64,000 bases of DNA, from sequence record ON075799; one strand, given 5' to 3'. Made by a program: the position numbers and the translations under genes. Under the pieces are notes generated by a model, which ran no database searches, was not told where the DNA came from, and saw nothing but the letters and a program-made list of their open reading frames with translations. This document shows positions 569-25,966 of the stretch, one piece after another. This stretch comes from Escherichia phage vB_EcoM_TH18. The stretch's first letter is position 1, and the number at the start of each line of letters is the position of its first letter.

Positions 569-1988
569 CTAAATTTACAGCCCTTCCAAAAGGTGGTACA
601 AATTTATTATTTCCGCGACCACAAATAACCCAAAGAATATCCCATTTGCGTCCCCAATCTTTTTTCTTGTGGCTTAAATCCTCTATATATCCGTCTGTAA
701 AAATAATAACGTCTTTTGCATCAAAAATGTTATTTTCAATATACTCAAAAGCTGATGCTGCAAGAGTCCCACCAGTGGAATTTACTTTATAATCAAGCAT
801 TTCCTTAATATTTTCGTGTGTATAAACTTTAACCTCTCCGACTTTTGTTGACCAACAGAACAATGTCACGCGAAAAACTCGGTAAAGCTGGCATAATCCT
901 ACAATTTCTCCGAAGATTTTGTCTAAATTTGCCTTCGAAATTGATCCAGATACATCGAAGCCAATAACTATATCTATAGTATTATCGTACTCTCTTCCTG
1001 GTAAAACGATATGCTGTTTTTTGCCGATAGCTCCGTACTGTCGAAGTGCCTGTGTCATAGATCCAGACCTACGAGATGGCTTCCTGTATGTCAGGTTAGA
1101 CTTAATCCGAGAAAGCATACGCTGTTTGATTATCTGAAGATAATTTATGTGTGGTTTACGCATCCTCGCAATAACGTCACGTACCTCTTTCGGCCCCTCT
1201 CCTCCCGCTGCTTCCATTGCTGCTTCGATAAGACCAGATGACCACGACATATTATCATCTTTTTCTGCCTGGTTTGGCACTGGGTGAGGATCTTCATATC
1301 CCAGGGTATTACTGTCCTGATCATAATCCCCTATGTGTGTACCCATAGGTTTGCCAATAGACGGTTGGCCTTTGTTTATGAGACTGTAAATCTCCTCTGC
1401 TGTCATGCCGTGGAAATTAAAATCACAATAGCAATAAGCCATAAACCCAAACTCTTTATCTTTGTCAAAGGTTGTCTGTTTCCCTGTTGGGAAGAAACAC
1501 ATCTGGGTTGAGCGCGGTCCGAGATCAGACACCACCAAATCTGTATTGATATAGTGATCCGCTGCTGTGTTGTAGGTTTTAGAATCAAATGCCTTTCCAC
1601 GGGATAGATGGTCATTTGTAATATGACGTAGCTCGTGCATAAGAATAACAACAACCTCTTTGGGTGTCTTCTTACGGTAAAATACGTTCACATAGTCTTT
1701 ATAGTCATCTTTGTCTTGTTGAGACATTGTTGGGTGGTTATCCACACGTTCAAATACCTTCTTTTTCCTTTCTTCAGGCATACCCATAATAAACTCAGGG
1801 TTGAAGTAGAGGTTTTTGTGATCAGTGGCTGCTGTTGGCAACCATTTCCAGTTCGCAACTAAAGGAAGAGAACTTAACAAAGTACCGTAGAATGGTCGGT
1901 ACTTTAAAAGAGCTATTCGTGCAGATTGGATAACTTTTACAGCATCCTTCTCTAATCTGGCAATCATTTCATATTCGTCTTTTTGCAT
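552..1988 (-). CDS. vWA-domain protein with N-terminal HExxH metallopeptidase-like domain (CobT-like partner of MoxR/CobS ATPases)
   Basis: 'HELRH' zinc-binding-like motif and 'DVSGSIS' MIDAS (DxSxS) motif; RBS GGAGA upstream of ATG. Confidence 0.65.
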   Translation of the reverse strand: MQKDEYEMIARLEKDAVKVIQSARIALLKYRPFYGTLLSSLPLVANWKWLPTAATDHKNLYFNPEFIMGMPEERKKKVFERVDNHPTMSQQDKDDYKDYVNVFYRKKTPKEVVVILMHELRHITNDHLSRGKAFDSKTYNTAADHYINTDLVVSDLGPRSTQMCFFPTGKQTTFDKDKEFGFMAYCYCDFNFHGMTAEEIYSLINKGQPSIGKPMGTHIGDYDQDSNTLGYEDPHPVPNQAEKDDNMSWSSGLIEAAMEAAGGEGPKEVRDVIARMRKPHINYLQIIKQRMLSRIKSNLTYRKPSRRSGSMTQALRQYGAIGKKQHIVLPGREYDNTIDIVIGFDVSGSISKANLDKIFGEIVGLCQLYRVFRVTLFCWSTKVGEVKVYTHENIKEMLDYKVNSTGGTLAASAFEYIENNIFDAKDVIIFTDGYIEDLSHKKKDWGRKWDILWVICGRGNNKFVPPFGRAVNLDEHAK

Positions 1989-2039: not shown

Positions 2040-2303
2040 TTATTTTTTACTTGTAAATAATTCTATGGTATCAAGCGGCATAAAATTATTACCGCCAGTT
2101 AATCTAGCACCCCATACAGGAACTTGCTTTCTTGGTGGTTGGCTTGGGAACATAAAAAGTACGATAGCTTCTACAGAAGTTTTAATGTTCTTTGCATTTT
2201 TATAACGAACCCTATCACCAACTTTAAAATTTGGTTTATTTCCAGATTCAATCATCTGGGCTTCTTGAAGGGTAGCTGGTCTCCCAAGAATTTCTTCAAA
2301 CAT
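2040..2303 (-). CDS. hypothetical protein
   Basis: 87-aa ORF. Confidence 0.45.
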   Translation of the reverse strand: MFEEILGRPATLQEAQMIESGNKPNFKVGDRVRYKNAKNIKTSVEAIVLFMFPSQPPRKQVPVWGARLTGGNNFMPLDTIELFTSKK

Positions 2304-4561: not shown

Positions 4562-4776
4562 TGAATGTTTATCAACCACATCCATTTGATCCAAAGAACA
4601 AAGCGGTGATCCACAGAGAATGGGTGGAGAGAAGGAAAACAAACTGCCCTGTTAAAGGTACAGAGGATTACAATAGGTTTTACACAGCAAAGTTTGTTGA
4701 GTATACCTTTATTAACAAAAAGGGTAAGAAAGTGCATGTTGCAGAATACCCTTTATGGATAAAATGGGAGGATTAG
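4561..4776 (+). CDS. hypothetical protein
   Basis: 71-aa ORF, start overlaps upstream stop. Confidence 0.45.
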   Translation: MNVYQPHPFDPKNKAVIHREWVERRKTNCPVKGTEDYNRFYTAKFVEYTFINKKGKKVHVAEYPLWIKWED

Positions 4777-7243: not shown

Positions 7244-7419
7244 TGACAAAACATAAGTTTAAGAAAGACCAGCTACATGAGAAATGGTGGTTTGAGAGAT
7301 CCGATATGGTTATGGCTGGGTACACCTATAAAAATAGGCGTGTGTTTGTTGTTTGTGCTAAAAATAAAAGCGAGGCATTGGAAAGTATGAATGCCTTCCT
7401 TGAAAGGAGTTGTGAATGA
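7243..7419 (+). CDS. small ORF (58 aa), not in ORF track
   Basis: ATG overlaps upstream stop (TGATG) and its stop overlaps next ATG (ATGA); fills an otherwise empty 170-bp gap. Confidence 0.3.
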   Translation: MTKHKFKKDQLHEKWWFERSDMVMAGYTYKNRRVFVVCAKNKSEALESMNAFLERSCE

Positions 7420-7598
7420 AGGTTAAAATGATTTCTGATTTTTCCGATGTTGCTGGATATCCAAAAACAGGAGATATTCTTGAAGTAAGAGAAGAAATCT
7501 TTAATGGTAGTTTTCTTGAGTGTTACTCTTGCGAATGGAATGGGAAAAGACTTGATATCTATCCATACGAATGCGAAGAGGTATCAGACAATGCTTAA
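7416..7598 (+). CDS. hypothetical protein
   Basis: 60-aa ORF, translationally coupled. Confidence 0.4.
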   Translation: MKVKMISDFSDVAGYPKTGDILEVREEIFNGSFLECYSCEWNGKRLDIYPYECEEVSDNA

Positions 7599-8112
7599 GT
7601 ATAAAGTTGGTTGCTTAATAGAGGCAGCACTTAAAAGGGATGTTAATGTGATAGCTCATGGTTGTAATACATTTTGCACCATGGGGTCTGGAATTGCTAA
7701 AGAAATAAAGAATGCATTCCCAAAAATGTATGCTGAAGATTTAAAGACAGAGAAAGGTGATCGAACAAAACTGGGCAGTTATACTTGGGCTGTCATGAAC
7801 GAAGGTAAGCTGGCGGGTTTTAATTTGTACACACAATACGGCTATAATGGGCGTAGAATGGGTGTTAGAGATTTAAATTATAACGCCCTTTACGATTCTT
7901 TAGCAGCAATGCGAGATTGTTTGCAAAGGCACACAGATGGCTTTATGTCTGATTATAAGATCGGGCTGCCAAAAATAGGTGCTGGGCTAGCAGGTGGGGA
8001 TTGGAAAATCATAGAAACTATGATAGAATCTGTTCTCCATGATTGTGATGTGACAATTTATGTTTTAAATAAAGAGGAGATCCCAGATGGCAAAAGAGAA
8101 CATGCATCCTGA
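7591..8112 (+). CDS. macro-domain protein (ADP-ribose binding/hydrolase family)
   Basis: 'VNVIAHGCN...MGSGIAKEI' and 'IGLPKIGAGLAGGDW' macro-domain signatures; ATG at 7591 with GAGG RBS. Confidence 0.65.
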   Translation: MLKYKVGCLIEAALKRDVNVIAHGCNTFCTMGSGIAKEIKNAFPKMYAEDLKTEKGDRTKLGSYTWAVMNEGKLAGFNLYTQYGYNGRRMGVRDLNYNALYDSLAAMRDCLQRHTDGFMSDYKIGLPKIGAGLAGGDWKIIETMIESVLHDCDVTIYVLNKEEIPDGKREHAS

Positions 8113-18230: not shown

Positions 18231-21158
18231 ATGAAGATTACAAAATGGGGGGCTGGTGCATACTTTGAAGGTGAGAACCCAAAAGCATTCCGTCCTGAAC
18301 GAAAAAGTGGTGGTAAAGTGAATTATCAGAAAAAAGAAGAAGAAACCGTAGAGTCTGTCCTAGATAGCACAAGGATCCTGGCTGTCCCCCAAATGGATAT
18401 TAGTTTAGATGCAGCTAAGTACTTTAAGATCAGATCTGCAACAGATTTGAAAGACGGCACTACAGTAGTGGCAACATATCTTCCATATTATGACAAATAT
18501 GGGAAATTGACAGGGTACAAGAAACGAGACTGGTCTGTCCCAAAAGAAAAAAAAGGTCATTTCTCTGTTGTTGGCACAGTGAAGGCCTCCTCTCAATTTT
18601 TTGGGCAACATGAAGCCGCTATGGGATCTGGTAAAAAACAGATCTTTATTGTTGAGGGGGAGGGTGATGTAACGGCTGGCTGGCAAGCTGGGTTTGAGTA
18701 TATTAAATTTCTTCATAGTAATCCTAATACGTCACGTTCAGTACGTGAGTGGGCAAGTAATGCTTTAAAAGGCATCAAAGCCATTCAGGATGGCGAAGAG
18801 GTTTCTAATTGCCCGACATTACCTTTTATCGGGTTGAACTGTGGAACAGCCAATGCGGTGGATACATTTGCCCACAACGAAAAGTTTATCAGGGAATATG
18901 AAAAGATTGTCCTTGGTTTAGACAATGATGAAGCCACAGCAAGGGAAAAAGAACACAGAATTAAGAAAGGTAAGGAAGCCACAGATGATGTTGCTAGTTT
19001 TTTGTTGTCTGACAACATCTATGTTGCACGATACCCGAATGAACGCAATGACCCAAATGGTGTTAAAGATATCCGGGATATTTACAAAAAAGGTAAGTGG
19101 ATGGATATCTGGAACATGTTTGCTAAAGCGCAGGATAAATATGTTCCTGACAAATTGATTGGGTTGGAGAGAATATCTATTGAAAATCTCCGTAAAAAGA
19201 AAAAAGATGGCGTTCCGTTGCCTTGCTTTCCTCGTTTGTATGAACTAACAAGAGGCCCACGAACAGGAGAATTGTGGACACTGACAGGCCCATCTGGAGC
19301 TGGGAAATCAACTTTCTCAAGAAAGATTGAATACGCAATTATCGAGTACCTCCGTAACATGGATATTCCCCGACTAGACGGATGGAAAGAGAACGAGAAG
19401 ATTGCAATTATCCGTCTAGAGGAGGATGAAGAGGAGTCTGTAAACAGTCTATATGCTGAGGAGTTAAAAATTGACCCGAAAGCATTTGTTGCAGACCCAG
19501 AGCAATTTCTTACCGATGAGCAGCACTTAGCGATACACCAACGGTGGATTGCCGAAGATAAGGTTAAAATTTTTGACCACTTTGGTTCAATACCGACTGA
19601 CCAATTGCTACAAAAATTGAAACAGATGGTTTTCCTTGATGGGTGCAGATGGATTATCTTAGATCACTTGTCGATGGTAATATCAGGATTAAAATCTGAT
19701 AACGAGCGAAGAGATTTAGATAACATCATGACGGAATTGGCTGCCTTCTGCAAAAAATATGACGTGTTTATCCTCAGTATCAGCCATATGAAGCGTAAAG
19801 AGATACAGATTCCAAAAGATAAGGATGGTAATCTCTTACCATTTTGGTATCCTGTGCGGAAAGAGGATCTTCGTGGTTGTCTTAACGGTTATGTAGAGTT
19901 CCTTACACCAGAAGGTTGGGTGCAGTTAAAAGACTACACACCGGGACAAAAAGTGGCACAGTGGGCAGACGGGGAGATATCTTTTACTGACGATGTTGAG
20001 CACATTAGACTTGAATGTCGAGAGGATATGTATGCATTCCGCAATTCAAGTTTTGAGATGACTGTCTCTGGAGAGCATCGTGTTCTACTGGATGTGGGGG
20101 GTGAGAAACAAGTTCTCACTGCGGAAGAGATTGCTAAACTGGCAAAATACGCTAGTTTTAAAGAACGATCTTCTATTGTCAGACATTACAGTGCTGGCAA
20201 TTTCCAGACATCATTAACAGAATGGCAAATCCGCGCCATGGTGATGTTTGCCGCTGATGGATGCTATCACAGCAATGGTTTGTGTAAGATGGAATTAAGA
20301 AAAGAGAGGAAAATAGAAAGAGCAACTAAAATTCTTGACAAACTTGGCGTGCATTATTCTCACGCAGTAAATAAAAGAGGGAACACAACCTTCAGGACTA
20401 AGGCATTGACAGAGAAAAAACCTCTACATCTATGCCATAATTGGTTTATTGAACCAAGCCATACCCTCAAAATTCTACTGGATGAGGTGTTCTTGTGGGA
20501 CGGTAGCGATAAAGGTGATAAGGGAAGAGAGTTTACTTCTAAGTATCGAGAAGAGTGTGATGTTGTTCAACACGCTGCTCATGCGAATGGAATGAGCACA
20601 AAACTCTACTCACGAACAGTAAATGGTGTTACATACTACACATTAAGTGTGTATCGGGAAGGTTCTTGTAAAAATAAGACATCTTTACGATCTCTTAAAC
20701 TGGAGAGAGAGCCTTCATGGGATGGATATAAATACTGCTTCAAAGTACCATCCAGCTATTTTGTTGTTCGACAAAACGGTGTGGTGTTCGTCACAGGAAA
20801 TAGTGCAGCACTCGAGCAGTTATCATGGGTTGTATTAGGTGTTGAACCTGAAGAACTCCCTGATCGCTCTCGTGGGCGTATTCGTAGCGTTGTAATGAAA
20901 AACCGTCCACATAAAAAATTAGGTATAGCGGATACTCTGATTATGGATGATAATGGTCAGTTTTCTGATGCATCTGGTTGGGTGTGGGAAGATGGTATGT
21001 TTAAACTTAATGGGGAGGTAATGCTAAGACCTAAATCAATGATTCAAAGTCTGGAACTTGAAACACCTGTGGGGAAAATTGCTGTTTCTGTTCCTCAACA
21101 AGAACCTGCTGTTGTTATTGAGCAACCTGAAGATTTAGATAGCGATTCTCCATTTTGA
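18231..21158 (+). CDS. primase-helicase (T7 gp4-like; Toprim + DnaB-family helicase) containing an intein
   Basis: 'EGEGD'/'DND' Toprim-like, Walker A 'GPSGAGKST', Walker B 'IILDH', helicase motif H4 'DLRG/SAALEQ' interrupted by a 308-aa insert. Confidence 0.7.
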   Translation: MKITKWGAGAYFEGENPKAFRPERKSGGKVNYQKKEEETVESVLDSTRILAVPQMDISLDAAKYFKIRSATDLKDGTTVVATYLPYYDKYGKLTGYKKRDWSVPKEKKGHFSVVGTVKASSQFFGQHEAAMGSGKKQIFIVEGEGDVTAGWQAGFEYIKFLHSNPNTSRSVREWASNALKGIKAIQDGEEVSNCPTLPFIGLNCGTANAVDTFAHNEKFIREYEKIVLGLDNDEATAREKEHRIKKGKEATDDVASFLLSDNIYVARYPNERNDPNGVKDIRDIYKKGKWMDIWNMFAKAQDKYVPDKLIGLERISIENLRKKKKDGVPLPCFPRLYELTRGPRTGELWTLTGPSGAGKSTFSRKIEYAIIEYLRNMDIPRLDGWKENEKIAIIRLEEDEEESVNSLYAEELKIDPKAFVADPEQFLTDEQHLAIHQRWIAEDKVKIFDHFGSIPTDQLLQKLKQMVFLDGCRWIILDHLSMVISGLKSDNERRDLDNIMTELAAFCKKYDVFILSISHMKRKEIQIPKDKDGNLLPFWYPVRKEDLRGCLNGYVEFLTPEGWVQLKDYTPGQKVAQWADGEISFTDDVEHIRLECREDMYAFRNSSFEMTVSGEHRVLLDVGGEKQVLTAEEIAKLAKYASFKERSSIVRHYSAGNFQTSLTEWQIRAMVMFAADGCYHSNGLCKMELRKERKIERATKILDKLGVHYSHAVNKRGNTTFRTKALTEKKPLHLCHNWFIEPSHTLKILLDEVFLWDGSDKGDKGREFTSKYREECDVVQHAAHANGMSTKLYSRTVNGVTYYTLSVYREGSCKNKTSLRSLKLEREPSWDGYKYCFKVPSSYFVVRQNGVVFVTGNSAALEQLSWVVLGVEPEELPDRSRGRIRSVVMKNRPHKKLGIADTLIMDDNGQFSDASGWVWEDGMFKLNGEVMLRPKSMIQSLELETPVGKIAVSVPQQEPAVVIEQPEDLDSDSPF
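19878..20801 (+). mobile_element. intein (308 aa) in helicase motif H4
   Basis: begins Cys 'CLNGYVEFLTPEGW', ends '...VVFVTGN' followed by Ser; flanks rejoin to 'DLRG-SAALEQ' (cf. DnaB 'DLRESGSIEQ'). Confidence 0.6.
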
Positions 21159-21205
21159 GAGAAAAAAGAGGATACATGTAAAATATGATGAGTTAGCTAT
21201 TCGTG

Positions 21206-21256
21206 TTGCCAAGGGGCTTGAGGGATACATTCCCGCCAAGAGAAGCCCTTTGGCAA
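21206..21256 (+). promoter_or_regulatory. long imperfect RNA hairpin between primase-helicase and DNA polymerase
   Basis: 14-bp stem (one G-U) TTGCCAAGGGGCTT / AAGCCCTTTGGCAA with inner GGGA/TCCC stem; no U-tract. Confidence 0.35.
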
Positions 21257-21353
21257 AGAAACATATGTCAAAAATAGGCAGTTTTCCACATAATCTATAA
21301 CCAACTAAGAGATGGGCGACGATACAGTCAAGCCCATCTTGAATAGGAGGAGT

Positions 21354-23390
21354 ATGAAAGGACTTTTTTTAGCCGATACAGAGGCTGATGGATTATTAGA
21401 AGAGGCAACTAAATATCACTGCACACTTTTTAAAGAATATGCTGTAAATAACTGGGTGTTGTTTCTCGATCCTGCTCACAAGGAATATCAGAGTGCAGTT
21501 AATTTTGCACGCAGCAAGGAAGGTGTTAATTTACGAATCCTTTCTTATGATGATTTTTACTCTTGGTTACAGACCGAACCAAGAGGGATAGCAATACATA
21601 ACCTGTTCGGCTATGACTTACGCCTGTGGAAAAAACTTTCTGGGATTGAATATGATATGTTCAAAGACCCAAAATGCATGGGGACGATAGGTAATAAACA
21701 GGTAAATCTTTACGACACTCTTTCAATGAGTCGTGTTCTTTACCCAGACCGCCCATTGCCTAATGGCTGCCCAGACTCTGTATTGAACCCTGTAACAGGA
21801 AAACGTGACAGGGTTGGGCCACACGGCTTATTGGCATGGGGTTATCGTGTAGCAAACAAGAAAGTGCAGATTGATGATTGGCGTAATCAGCCATTGTGGG
21901 AATATGTAAACCGTGTATGGGAAGACGTTATCATTAACGAACTTGTGTGGAAAGCTCTTATTGATGAGTCAAATGGTACGCGATGGCCTGATGACAAGCA
22001 GTTTATGTATACTGATAAACCTCACGGGATGCACCAGATTAATTGGAAAAATGCATTACGTAGGAGAATGCTCACAGACTATTTGATGATAGAGCAAGAA
22101 ATACAGGGTGTATACTTTAATCGGGAGGAGGCAGAAAAATTAAGAGATCGCATAGATAAGATGATGCGAGAAATTGAAGAAGAGGTAGAACCACTTCTTC
22201 CAAAAAAAGAGATGACGAAATCCCAACAACCAAAATTCCCAGCTAACCCTTTTGACACAGCGGGCAATATATCTCATCATGGGTGGAATTGGTTGGAATA
22301 TAAACTTGGCTATCCTGTTAACAGAGAAGCTCTGGAGTTCAAGGCTCCACCAAAAACAGCCTTTAAGAGTAACGGGGATGTAAGTGCAGCAGGGGAGAGA
22401 TATTGCATCCAGAATGGCATTGAAGATCCGGCTTTATACGGTGATTTCATTCGTTCCCAGCGAACCAAAGAGAACACACTCGAACCTTTACCGCCAGATC
22501 TTCTAGAGAAGGCTAAAGAAGACCTTCGAAATAGAAAAATGCCAGATTTAATGGTTCCAATGAAAATCTCTAATCAAGATGATATTAAAAAATATTTGAT
22601 CAAAGATGCTGGTTGGAAACCTACACTGTGGCGTGTAAAAGATGTTACTAAGGATCAATTTAAAAAGGCCCGTGAAGATTCTGAAATCGATGTACTAGTT
22701 AAGAAGTACATAGAAGAGTTGGCAGAATCTGAATATAAATCTCTTATTCTTGAATACCTTAATGATTCAGATGAGAAATTCAACATTTCAGAACGTAAGT
22801 TTGACCATCGCCATGCATCTGAAAGGGGTTATTCAGAGATATTTAAGAAATTTCGGCGCAAGGCACGCCAGTTACCGACATCTCCTCAACTAAAAGATAA
22901 TTTTGGGCATCTGTGCCCAAATCTGGAGAAAATTGATGTGCATATGGCAAAACAGATTGTTAAGTGGCTATCACTTCGTAACAGGCGATCTGTTTTAGAC
23001 CCAATGGATGAGGATAAGACGGATACAGGGTTATTAAATCACCCTCGTTTAGACATTGACGGAAAACTCCCAGCACGTTTTTCTGGAATCACTAACACGG
23101 GCAGGTGCAAGCATACTGTTTGCGCAAACATGCCCAAGCCTGATCCGAAGGTCTTGTTGGGAAAAGAAATGCGGGGTCTTTGGACAGTCCCTGAAGGCTA
23201 CTACCTGATGGGTTGTGATGGATCTAACTTAGAAGGTATGATTGCCGCAGCAGGAGCTTTTGAGTTTGATGGCGGTGAATATTTACGTATCATGATGGAA
23301 GAGGATGCCCATGAACGAAATGCAAGAGCATACACAATAGCCGCAGGAAAGGAGGTAACACGCTCTGGAGGAAAGGGGATTACGTATGGT
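21354..23390 (+). CDS. DNA polymerase (family A, T7 gp5-like) exon 1: 3'-5' exonuclease + polymerase motifs A and first half of B
   Basis: N-term 'MKGLFLADTEADGLLEEATKYHC' like T7 gp5 'DIEANALLESVTKFHC'; motif A 'CDGSNLE'; ends '...RSGGKGITYG' then stops in all frames; ATG 21354 with AGGAGG (ORF-track start 21312 less likely). Confidence 0.7.
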
Positions 23391-24124
23391 TAATGATAGC
23401 CCCCTTACAAAGTAATTTGTAAGGCGCACCCATTGAATTGCTGGGAAGTCTGACCGAGTTATGTCGAAGATAATCAGCAGGTAAGCGAATGCTTCCCTCT
23501 TACAAAAGGAGGGAGAATATGAGTACATTTTGTTGTATAATCTGCGGTGAGCAATGTGTTAAAACTGGTAAAAATCAAAAAGTATGTCTCTCTGAAGGCT
23601 GTAAAAGAGAATATCCAAAGATAAAAACCAGAGAATATAGACGCAGAAAGGCCGAAAAAGAAAATAGGCTTGATAGAGTTGGCATAGGAAAAGGTGGTGG
23701 GCAACCTTGTGGAAAATTGTCCAAATTTTATAAAAATGGTATATCGATGTTTCGTAAGTTATCCCCTGTCATAAAGGAACAGAGAAGATACTGTAATAGA
23801 TGTAATAAAGATCTTCTTTATGCAGGTAAGGATGAATGGTGCGTTCATCATATTGACCATGACAGGACGAATAACGAAATAAGTAATTTTGAATTACTTT
23901 GTAAAAAATGCCATCAAATAGAACATAAATGTTGGGAAGCATTCGAAACTTCAACGACTAGCCGAAAGGCGTAGGGCCAAGCGGTGAGGGAAACCTCCAG
24001 TCTTTTAGACTGCCGAAGCGGTGGGCATCCTGAAAAGGATGAAGATATAGTCTGATCTGCATAGAAATATGTAGCAGTTCCTAAGAGGACGGGCATGGTG
24101 TAGCGAGCCATGTTGAACAATATG
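23391..24124 (+). mobile_element. group I intron 1 (with HNH ORF)
   Basis: splits motif B ('...ITYG | IMYGAQAPKIA'); upstream exon ends in T, insert ends in G; shares 'AATTGC-GGGAA' and 'GATATAGTCTGA' elements with intron 2. Confidence 0.55.
23519..23974 (+). CDS. HNH homing endonuclease (intron-encoded)
   Basis: 'CVHHIDHDRTNNEISNFELLCKKCHQIEH' HNH motif with zinc-binding Cys pairs; RBS AAGGAGGG. Confidence 0.65.
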   Translation: MSTFCCIICGEQCVKTGKNQKVCLSEGCKREYPKIKTREYRRRKAEKENRLDRVGIGKGGGQPCGKLSKFYKNGISMFRKLSPVIKEQRRYCNRCNKDLLYAGKDEWCVHHIDHDRTNNEISNFELLCKKCHQIEHKCWEAFETSTTSRKA

Positions 24125-24457
24125 ATCATGTATGGAGCACAGGCTCCTAAGATAGCCGCAATGCTGGGTATCCCCCTTAATAGAGCACAGGCTGTAATAG
24201 ATGCATTCTGGGATAGTAACTTCGGGTTGAAAATGCGTAGGGAGCGGTTGGAAAAATTCTGGGAGGCAAATGGGAGACGCTATATTCCAGGCATGGACGG
24301 GCGTAAAATTTGGACTCGTTCTAAACATTCTCTGCTGAATGCTTACCAACAAAACGGTGGCGCTTCATTGTTTGACCTCATGGGAGTCCTGTTCCATTGG
24401 GAATTGGTAAAACGGGGATGGTACGACCAAGGTGTCAGGAGGGTTATCTATTACCAT
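24125..24457 (+). CDS. DNA polymerase exon 2 (rest of motif B to start of motif C)
   Basis: 'IMYGAQAPKIAAMLGI...RVIYYH' ; ends exactly before 'DE' of motif C. Confidence 0.6.
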
Positions 24458-24774
24458 AAACAATATTGTGGCTTCATGCAGTAATGCATGTCGAAAACCT
24501 CTCTAATTGACGGGAAAGCTAAGTTGATTCTTATAATTTATTGTGTTATAAGGACAATATGCCAATCCGCAGCGAAGCATCCCTACGGGATGAACGTTCA
24601 ACGACTATCGAAAGCACACTAGTAATGTGTAAGTGAGTAGAGTAGGCCAGCAAGTGCGGTCCAAACGGGAGGAACCCTTGAAAAAGGGTTATGATATAGT
24701 CTGACCCACAGGAGAAATCTTGTGGCTATGCACGTAACGGTGCGGGGGAGAGTAGCGAACTCCTTGAACTGGTG
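24458..24774 (+). mobile_element. group I intron 2 (ORF-less)
   Basis: splits motif C 'YYH | DEIQV'; ends in G; conserved elements shared with intron 1. Confidence 0.5.
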
Positions 24775-25074
24775 GATGAGATACAAGTACAAGTACCGGA
24801 AAGATTTAAATCAATAACGGAGTATTCCAGTTTAGATGCTGCACAAAGCTATGTAGATATGATGCTTGAAAAAGGTCATCGTTTCGACGGACATTATGTG
24901 AAAGCAGGTAAAGTTATTGTTGAACCTGATGTGTACGGGAAATACAGGATACTGCATTGCCCAGTAGGAGAGCTTGCAACAAAATGTGTAGAAAAAGCAT
25001 CTAAGATAATGGGGCTTCCCGTTTTAATTACAGGAGAATATCTTTGTGGTTATACTTGGGCAGATTCCCACTAA
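24775..25074 (+). CDS. DNA polymerase exon 3 (motif C to C-terminus)
   Basis: 'DEIQVQV...' completes HDE; C-terminus '...GYTWADSH' like Pol I-family terminal His. Confidence 0.6.
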   Translation, partial: DEIQVQVPERFKSITEYSSLDAAQSYVDMMLEKGHRFDGHYVKAGKVIVEPDVYGKYRILHCPVGELATKCVEKASKIMGLPVLITGEYLCGYTWADSH

Positions 25075-25083
25075 AAATGGTAA

Positions 25084-25105
25084 GGTGCTGAAAAGCACCT
25101 TTTTT
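25084..25105 (+). terminator. intrinsic terminator after DNA polymerase
   Basis: GGTGCT-GAAA-AGCACC followed by TTTTTT. Confidence 0.6.
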
Positions 25106-25120
25106 GAAAGAAGAGGTGGT

Positions 25121-25480
25121 ATGAGAGTAAAAGGAACCCAGACAACAACACAACTTATTGATGTTGAAGTAAACGACTCTGAAATCAAAAGAATCATAGA
25201 TAGCCAAGACAAAATGATCTTGGCAGAAGCAATTCAACAAAAACTTTTAAACAAATTCTTCAAAAGATGCCTCCCTTCAATAGACGGGGAGATTATCGTA
25301 AGGAAGGACGCTAAGACTGGCAAGATCTTCGTCCATGTTGATGCAGATTGGGATTACCATAATAATGTTGGCGTGGAGAAAGAAATCAGGCCATTGACAC
25401 ACGATGAGGTTGTATTGTATGAAAACATCCTAGGACTACCTGAGTATATAATGTCTTTAGATGTTGAATGGGCTAACTAA
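25121..25480 (+). CDS. hypothetical protein
   Basis: ATG 25121 after RBS AAGAGGTGG. Confidence 0.5.
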   Translation: MRVKGTQTTTQLIDVEVNDSEIKRIIDSQDKMILAEAIQQKLLNKFFKRCLPSIDGEIIVRKDAKTGKIFVHVDADWDYHNNVGVEKEIRPLTHDEVVLYENILGLPEYIMSLDVEWAN

Positions 25481-25546
25481 GAACACTTGCCATAGGCAAT
25501 CTGTTTGTGTATCATTTCACTACCTAACACTTTGTGGAGAATTTCT

Positions 25547-25966
25547 ATGAGAAATGTAAAGATACATGCAATACCAAGTGACTATTTATCGCCACCTGCA
25601 CAAGGGAGTTCCTTCTGTACAGATATGGTTTCTTATGATGACTACAAGAAACTGGAGGGTATGTTCATTGACGTAGCATCAGAAAATGCACTCCTAAAGA
25701 AGTTCATTCGTGAGAGTTGTTATGTTTTCGATGGCGAACAATCAGATATTTTGGATGCATATACCCCAGCAGATCAGTCACCTTTGATGCCTAGTTTGGA
25801 AGCCACAAATAAGTTCCCCACAGAGATGATGGCTCAAGGTGTTCATATGTACGGTATGCTCACAATCCGTATCGGAGAGCAGGAGCAAGAAGAAAGCATC
25901 ATCTATGCTGGTAAACAAGCCCTTCTCTATGCAGAACAACTTCGTAATGGAGATTTCGAACAATGA
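25547..25966 (+). CDS. hypothetical protein
   Basis: ORF from ATG 25547. Confidence 0.45.
   Translation: MRNVKIHAIPSDYLSPPAQGSSFCTDMVSYDDYKKLEGMFIDVASENALLKKFIRESCYVFDGEQSDILDAYTPADQSPLMPSLEATNKFPTEMMAQGVHMYGMLTIRIGEQEQEESIIYAGKQALLYAEQLRNGDFEQ

Follow-up and report, generated by a model that had tools for sequence, protein, structure and literature searches.

We analysed a 64,000-nucleotide (nt) stretch of DNA from Escherichia phage vB_EcoM_TH18 (record ON075799, one strand; hereafter the window) and find that its family A DNA polymerase is very probably encoded by a single gene that is interrupted by two related, self-splicing group I introns of the IA2 type, located in a codon of catalytic motif B and in a codon of motif C. 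The evidence comes from the anatomy of the sequence, from covariation among homologous introns, from the presence or absence of these introns in related phages, and from published splicing in Pectobacterium phage CB7, whose introns occupy the same two sites. Record OK136180.1 (Escherichia phage 18-1-2; Avunavirus, Vequintavirinae) equals the window coordinate for coordinate, and the window shares 96.7% identity with the type phage Av-05 across the polymerase region.

Polymerase reading frame across motifs B and C

The polymerase frame is broken twice. At the first break, the frame ending in ...GKGITYG meets a TAA directly at 23391-23393 and resumes at 24125 (IMYGAQAPKIA...); at the second, it stops after ...VIYYH at 24457 and resumes at 24775 (DEIQVQV...). 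Both 5′ exons have T as their last base (23390 and 24457), and both inserts end in G (24124 and 24774). Counted from the 5′ junction, stops appear in the three frames after 0, 7, and 9 codons in insert 1 and after 8, 15, and 16 codons in insert 2. Joining 21354..23390, 24125..24457, and 24775..25074 yields a protein of 889 amino acids, which matches the family A polymerase profile PF00476 (41.2 bits, cut-off 34.3) and can be aligned to residues 470-660 of T7 gp5 via motifs B and C with no gap at either junction. The motif B junction (trsggkgitygimygaqapkia) is matched to T7 TRDNAKTFIYGFLYGAGDEKIG (in a second rendering, RSGGKGITYG/IMYGAQ to T7 RDNAKTFIYGFLYGAG), and the motif C junction (VIYYH/DEIQV) to T7 MAWVHDEIQV. 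The gene of Klebsiella phage BIS47, the closest intron-less relative found (79% amino acid identity), is colinear at the DNA level over both sites, and exon 3 is colinear with the polymerases of Av-05, BIS47, and CB7. Inspection by eye revealed no suitably placed ribosome-binding site upstream of exons 2 and 3.

Three other guanosines were considered as 3′ splice sites. Splicing at G24074, where the Rfam match to intron 1 ends, runs into an in-frame stop; at G24112 it would insert 4 residues into motif B, and at G24750 it would place 8 residues between the His and the Asp-Glu of motif C. All three were rejected because intron-less homologues are contiguous at these positions.

A preliminary description of the locus, made from the sequence alone, had placed the breaks in motif B (ITYG/IMYGAQAPKIA) and motif C (YYH/DE), and both the reading frames and the T7 gp5 alignment agree with it, as do the terminal T of the 5′ exons, the terminal G of the inserts, and the stops in all frames after the first 5′ junction. 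Its splice points, offered with a margin of a few nucleotides, proved to be exactly right, in that exact excision restores a polymerase colinear with T7 gp5 and BIS47, and the range it gave (23391-24774) runs from the first base of intron 1 to the last base of intron 2.

Public annotation divides this gene. OK136180.1 lists two ‘DNA-directed DNA polymerase’ fragments (21354..23393 and 24113..24484), names 23519..23974 a ‘hypothetical protein’, and contains no coding sequence matching exon 3. The records of phages 18-1-2, 19-1-2, 24-2-1, and Av-05 all hold polymerase fragments together with ‘hypothetical’ or HNH proteins, the omission of exon 3 being noted for 18-1-2.

Group I structure and covariation

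The inserts had been described as group I introns, and the covariance-model search proposed as a check on this points the same way. The Rfam model RF00028 matches intron 2 with 91.2 bits (gathering score 50, E value 4.7e-22) and the 3′ half only of intron 1 (23871-24074) with 47.5 bits (E value 1.4e-10), and a search of the whole window with Rfam returned no family besides group I at an E value of 0.01 or better. A complete group I secondary structure can be assigned to both inserts (Table 1). Each contains a P3/P7 pseudoknot and a P7 with the bulge and the G-C pair typical of the guanosine site, and in both introns P10 pairs the first bases of the following exon with those immediately 5′ of the guide sequence. 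Subgroup IA2 is defined by P7.1 and P7.2 between P7 and P3′, joined by G-U-A (PMC3428280). This region reads GCCGAAAGGC-GUA-G-GGCC... in intron 1 (23961-24014), and both introns classify as IA2-type by the P7.1-GUA-P7.2 criterion. Unconstrained minimum free energy and centroid folds of intron 2 recover P2-P6a, P7.1, P7.2, P8, P9, P9.1, and P9.2.

Introns 1 and 2 have the same core and the same 3′ domain with the conserved L9.2 loop GUAGCGA. The two sequence elements previously seen in both inserts were located in each, AATTGCTGGGAA at 23436-23447 of intron 1 and its counterpart AATTGACGGGAA at 24505-24516 of intron 2, and GATATAGTCTGA at 24044-24055 and 24693-24704. They map to J3/4-P4-J4/5 and J8/7-P7′ of the group I core, respectively. 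The first element has 2 matches in the window, compared with 0.26 expected, and two were reached by 2 of 100 shuffles; the second, scanned with one mismatch allowed (0.41 matches expected), is weak by itself because 10 of 100 shuffles reach two matches.

Table 1. Positions of exons, introns, and structural elements in the window
Feature	Position	Strand	Description
Exon 1	21354..23390	+	679 amino acids; exonuclease domain, thumb, fingers to first half of motif B (...RSGGKGITYG); based on the ORF list, OK136180.1 ‘DNA-directed DNA polymerase’, the PF00476 match, and the T7 gp5 alignment of the spliced protein
Intron 1	23391..24124	+	734 nt, group I (IA2-type), HNH ORF in P6a loop
Exon 2	24125..24457	+	111 amino acids; second half of motif B (IMYGAQ...) to ...VIYYH of motif C
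Intron 2	24458..24774	+	317 nt, group I (IA2-type), no ORF
Exon 3	24775..25074	+	99 amino acids plus stop (25072-25074); starts with catalytic DE of motif C
HNH homing-endonuclease ORF (putative)	23519..23974	+	151 amino acids, in P6a loop; last codons overlap P6a′, P6′, P7, P7.1
Hairpin	23493..23515	+	9 bp; pairs HNH ORF Shine-Dalgarno GGAGGG with upstream UUCCCUCU
Intron 1 P1	23388-23392/23397-23401		U23390·G23399
Intron 1 P10	23393-23397		with exon 24125-24129 (5 bp)
Intron 1 P2	23403-23424		
Intron 1 P3	23429-23435/24019-24025		
Intron 1 P4	23439-23444/23474-23479		
Intron 1 P5	23449-23470		
Intron 1 P6	23480-81/23949-50		
Intron 1 P6a	23486-23497/23934-23945		
Intron 1 P7	23954-23960/24048-24053		
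Intron 1 P7.1	23961-23970		
Intron 1 GUA	23971-73		
Intron 1 P7.2	23975-24014		
Intron 1 P8	24026-24041		
Intron 1 P9.0	24055-56/24122-23		
Intron 1 P9	24057-24074		
Intron 1 P9.1	24077-24090		
Intron 1 P9.2	24092-24114		
Intron 1 terminal G	24124		
Intron 2 P1	24454-24459/24466-24471		U24457·G24468
Intron 2 P10	24464-24467		with exon 24775-24778 (4 bp)
Intron 2 P2	24475-24490		
Intron 2 P3	24498-24503/24667-24672		
Intron 2 P4	24508-24514/24566-24571		
Intron 2 P5-P5b	24518-24562		
Intron 2 P6	24572-73/24596-97		
Intron 2 P6a	24577-24593		
Intron 2 P7	24601-24607/24697-24702		
Intron 2 P7.1	24608-24636		
Intron 2 GUA	24642-44		
Intron 2 P7.2	24645-24661		
Intron 2 P8	24673-24690		
Intron 2 P9.0	24704-05/24772-73		
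Intron 2 P9	24706-24725		
Intron 2 P9.1	24730-24743		
Intron 2 P9.2	24745-24765		
Intron 2 terminal G	24774		

The structures were compared among homologous introns from which the open reading frame (ORF) loops had been removed prior to alignment. The site-1 set contains four introns (this phage, Av-05, Klebsiella phage KpS11, and CB7) and the site-2 set six (this phage, Av-05, HMD-6, PDX, FV3, and CB7); pairs were counted separately in the two sets because a joint MAFFT alignment of the 10 introns left P4, P9, P9.1, P9.2, and P7.2 out of register between sites. In the site-2 set, 94.3% of cells are in standard pairs, and compensatory changes are seen at 25 of the 79 pairs, compared with 35-40% and 2-6 pairs when the 3′ partners are slid. 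The corresponding values for the site-1 set are 99.4% and 12 of 95 pairs (36-43% and 0-3 pairs with partners slid). Neither count of pairs changed on both sides was reached in any of 500 shuffles, numbers that speak for consistency rather than independent proof, the sets being small and their members related.

Compensatory changes are located in P2, P3, P6a, P7, P7.1, P7.2, P8, P9.0, P9, and P9.2, with one such pair in each of P7.1 and P7.2. P7 is 100% paired in both sets and contains two compensatory pairs in the site-2 set (the A-U beside the bulge is replaced by G-C, and a U-A by C-G), the G-C pair after the bulge is invariant, and P3 is 89-100% paired. P9.0 shows a compensatory A-U to C-G change in the site-1 set, and its second pair is unpaired in 4 of the 6 site-2 introns. 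A U at position -1 paired with a guide-sequence G, a terminal G, and a P10 of 4-5 bp are found in 10 of 10 homologous introns. The group I fold is complete in both inserts and supported by compensatory changes among relatives, in agreement with the group I introns first proposed from the sequence.

The preliminary description had also assigned an HNH ORF to the first insert and none to the second. No ORF above 44 amino acids is present in insert 2, and the ORF in insert 1 matches phrog_25862 ‘HNH endonuclease’ over its full length (E value 4.9e-91). It has an N-terminal cysteine cluster and, near the C terminus, H/N/H residues with paired cysteines (HHIDHDRTNN...CKKCH), a segment that aligns to the HNH domain of an IscB structure (E value 0.059). 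The hairpin that covers its ribosome-binding site (Table 1) folds with -14.3 kcal/mol (z score -2.66), and an equivalent pairing of different sequence can be seen by eye in KpS11 and CB7.

Several local features of the two introns were noted besides. The 9-nt loop of P9.2 is identical in both (GUAGCGA at 24100..24106 and 24752..24758) and reads UAGCGA or UAACGA in all relatives, the stem beneath it covaries, and the P9-P9.2 domain is the most widely conserved part among introns of Bacillus, Staphylococcus, Klebsiella, Yersinia, and crAss-like phages; no pairing or docking partner was found for the GUAGCGA loop. P7.2 of intron 1 has a 28-nt insertion (23985..24012) folding into two hairpins, GAGG-GAAA-CCUC and CAGUC-UUUUA-GACUG, in this phage and in Av-05, and KpS11 and CB7 are without it. 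The P7.1 hairpin of intron 2 (24608..24636) is swapped, reading CACAC-UAGUAAU-GUGU here versus CAUCAG...CUGAUG in Av-05; outside the ORF and P7.1, intron 2 is ∼93% identical between the two phages.

Related introns, splicing, and alternative explanations

CB7 belongs to the same subfamily, has a homologous polymerase, and carries introns at exactly the same codon positions (TYG/IMYG and YYH/DE). Its intron 1 is 68% identical to intron 1 of this phage over the whole length, as is its HNH protein, CB7_52, to the HNH protein described here (68%). The CB7 polymerase gene is split in three by two HNH-associated introns that are both removed in vivo, as found by reverse transcription-PCR and Sanger sequencing; the group I label rests in that study solely on the HNH genes, with no structure or splice-site analysis (PMC7344957). 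The two-intron locus belongs to a well-known kind, then, and introns at the same sites in CB7 are already known to splice. By analogy, both introns would be spliced in the phage analysed here as well.

The introns are unevenly distributed among relatives. Both are present in Av-05 and CB7, and BIS47 has neither; KpS11 carries just intron 1, and HMD-6, PDX, and FV3 carry just intron 2. The phage collection holds ∼21 records with most of intron 1 and ∼40 with most of intron 2, nearly all from Vequintavirinae. Around site 1 the exons of KpS11 and BIS47 are 98-100% identical, the intron being present in KpS11 only, and their last 30 exon bases differ at a single position, the -1 base, which is T with the intron and C without it. 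On sequence grounds, this is the pattern that homing or precise loss would leave. BIS47 (1909..1929 and 2242..2256) has C at both empty sites versus the T of intron-bearing alleles (GGC/GGT and CAC/CAT). As a strict tracker of intron presence the -1 base was rejected, KpS11 having T at its empty site 2.

Intron 2 exists in two forms, one with an HNH ORF in P6a (Av-05 and FV3) and one that is ORF-less with a short P6a hairpin (this phage, HMD-6, and PDX), and both forms occur in Avunavirus and in Vequintavirus. The HNH gene in the Av-05 and FV3 versions is different from that of intron 1. Other HNH genes are found near these polymerases: a free-standing one in Av-05 (7273..7911), missing from this phage, overlaps the end of polymerase exon 3, and free-standing HNH genes flank the polymerase gene of CB7. 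In CB7 intron 2, a near-consensus sigma-70 promoter-like site (4646..4673; TTGACA, 16 nt, TATGAT) lies just upstream of the HNH ORF, and a hairpin covers the ribosome-binding site of that ORF.

A number of points weigh against a pair of self-splicing group I introns within this gene. The ORF arrangement of CB7 intron 2 differs from that of the ORF-less intron 2 here, its HNH ORF beginning before P4′ and not inside P6a, and an HNH-associated insertion elsewhere in CB7, in a different gene, was not spliced (PMC7344957). Intron 1 is 2.5 bits short of the RF00028 gathering score because its 436-nt ORF loop parts the 5′ core (P3-P6) from the 3′ core (P7-P9), a distance that the model cannot bridge, and its 5′ half was placed by comparison and not by the covariance model. 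The folding energy of intron 2 is by itself unexceptional (z score -1.61), and the structure strings used in the comparative test were derived from the same sequences, which favours them over the slid controls. The intron 1 ORF scores just under the Pfam cut-offs (HNH_3, 21.8 versus 24.8; HNH, 20.5 versus 21.4), and we know of no endonuclease activity for the PHROG family phrog_25862.

We consider it very improbable that the inserts no longer splice, as decayed introns or mere endonuclease insertions, and that the polymerase is made as three polypeptides assembling after translation: with breaks inside motif B and one residue before the Asp-Glu of motif C, separate chains would split the active site, and neither intron has lost a core helix, all of them being preserved across genera by compensatory changes. 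Such an assembly from separate polypeptides has reportedly been described for the split NrdA of Aeromonas phage Aeh1. The CB7 insertion that did not splice would fit this explanation, but both CB7 introns at the sites in question are spliced (PMC7344957). Separate polymerase fragments are annotated in the GenBank records, and translation could in principle start at an in-frame ATG (24110) upstream of exon 2 and at an in-frame GTG (24772) for exon 3, but by eye neither is preceded by a Shine-Dalgarno sequence.

We find it hardly credible that only intron 2 is an active ribozyme and that intron 1 is a cofactor-dependent or slowly removed regulatory intron limiting the polymerase level, since its Rfam score below the gathering threshold is accounted for by the ORF loop, the short exon part of its P1 (3 bp) is of a kind common in phage introns, and all core pairings and the G-binding pair are conserved, even if the UAA as first intron codon would make ribosomes stall at P1 and the P7.2 insertion is absent from KpS11 and CB7. 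The CB7 intron at the same site, with the same P1, splices in vivo (PMC7344957).

Proposed mechanism, possible mobility, and genomic context

For two self-splicing introns the established group I pathway predicts the following steps. The polymerase gene would be transcribed as a single pre-mRNA, in which each intron would fold into a P3-P9 and P4-P6 core. The internal guide sequence would pair with the upstream exon end to form P1, placing a U·G wobble where cleavage occurs, and an external guanosine bound at the P7 G-C pair would attack the 5′ splice site. The terminal G, placed by P9.0 and P10, would then take over, the freed 3′-OH of the exon would attack the 3′ splice site, and the ligated exons would form the mRNA for the 889-amino acid polymerase. 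Judged by its sequence, the intron 1 HNH protein may be an active endonuclease, which presumably cuts or nicks intron-less polymerase alleles in mixed infections, repair copying the intron in (homing). Translation of the HNH ORF is probably restrained by the hairpin that masks the ribosome-binding site, a mode of control described for endonucleases of other phage introns.

A more far-reaching and, in our opinion, unlikely interpretation is that the two introns are paralogues that spread between the catalytic motifs, with the ORF-less intron 2 mobilised in trans and the pair acting as a competition device. If it were true, the HNH enzyme of intron 1, or free-standing HNH genes like that next to the Av-05 polymerase gene, could mobilise intron 2, and the pair could serve marker exclusion or competition against co-infecting intron-less Vequintavirinae and not be purely selfish DNA.

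Knowledge of group I introns in the family A polymerase genes of phages goes back to SPO1, and further examples come from T7-like phages, Bastille, Pf-WMP3, and many Bastillevirinae (PMC3428280, PMC11878797), the latter having up to three introns per polymerase gene (PMC11878797). The introns in the family A polymerase genes of SPO1, SP82, Bastille, and Pf-WMP3 (I-HmuI, I-HmuII, I-BasI, and I-PfoP3I) encode HNH nicking endonucleases and sit in conserved catalytic regions, as here. They differ from the introns described here in belonging to another endonuclease lineage, in occurring once per gene, and in their insertion site at Pol I residue 674; the Pf-WMP3 intron also starts with UAA (PMC3428280). 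The introns of PhiI and W31, inserted at Pol I residue 881, are of subgroup IA2 with P7.1-GUA-P7.2 and carry an HNH gene in P6a (PMC3428280).

The 3′ domain (P7′-P9.2) of the Yersinia phage Berlin intron is 84% identical over 81 nt to that of intron 1 here. The introns of Berlin and of Ralstonia phage DU_RP_I, both T7-like phages, likewise interrupt motif B of a family A polymerase, at a point within the Phe codon of KTF/IYG that lies 10 nt upstream of site 1; the Berlin intron ORF is unrelated to the HNH ORF here (E value 0.17). In Klebsiella podophage RCIP0099, the intron position appears to be that of site 1. By Pol I numbering, residue 881 would correspond to the first residue (His) of HDE, which would place the PhiI and W31 insertion at site 2 or adjacent to it. 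The T4 td, nrdB, and nrdD (sunY) introns are IA2-type; in them a peripheral helix loops out the endonuclease ORF, a hairpin sequesters a ribosome-binding site, and relatives have variants that are decayed or lack the ORF. They reside in different host genes and encode endonucleases of the GIY-YIG or HNH-like I-Tev families. Our literature search found no paper describing the Av-05 or 18-1-2 introns.

Downstream, exon 3 is overlapped by an OK136180.1 ‘hypothetical protein’ (25046..25480) whose phrog_6273 match begins at residue 26, and the true start of this gene is probably the ATG at 25121, downstream of GAGGTGG. A few bases past the polymerase stop, a G+C-rich, terminator-like hairpin (25082..25101; AAGGTGC-TGAAAA-GCACCTT) is followed by TTTTGA; the terminator scan reported it on the minus strand only. 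The promoter and terminator scan of 21000-25600 found nothing above chance within the introns. Upstream, the primase/helicase ORF (18231..21158) contains a 308-residue insertion (19878..20801) that is not found in its Av-05 orthologue (975 versus 666 amino acids). The insertion begins with Cys (CLNGYVEF), ends with ...VFVTGN followed by Ser, and contains two LAGLIDADG-like motifs (VMFAADGCY and VFLWDGSDKG). It had no Pfam match at an E value of 1 or better, and a search of the PDB returned only a marginal intein match (E value 0.065); its termini and motifs suggest that it is probably an intein with a homing endonuclease.

The main value of the finding is a corrected annotation, with one 889-amino acid polymerase in place of fragments. 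It opens no new kind of biology. Whether the two sites in motifs B and C contain an intron varies between genera of Vequintavirinae, which adds to the picture of intron turnover, and the Vequintavirinae set forms a good natural series for homing and for the gain and loss of endonucleases.

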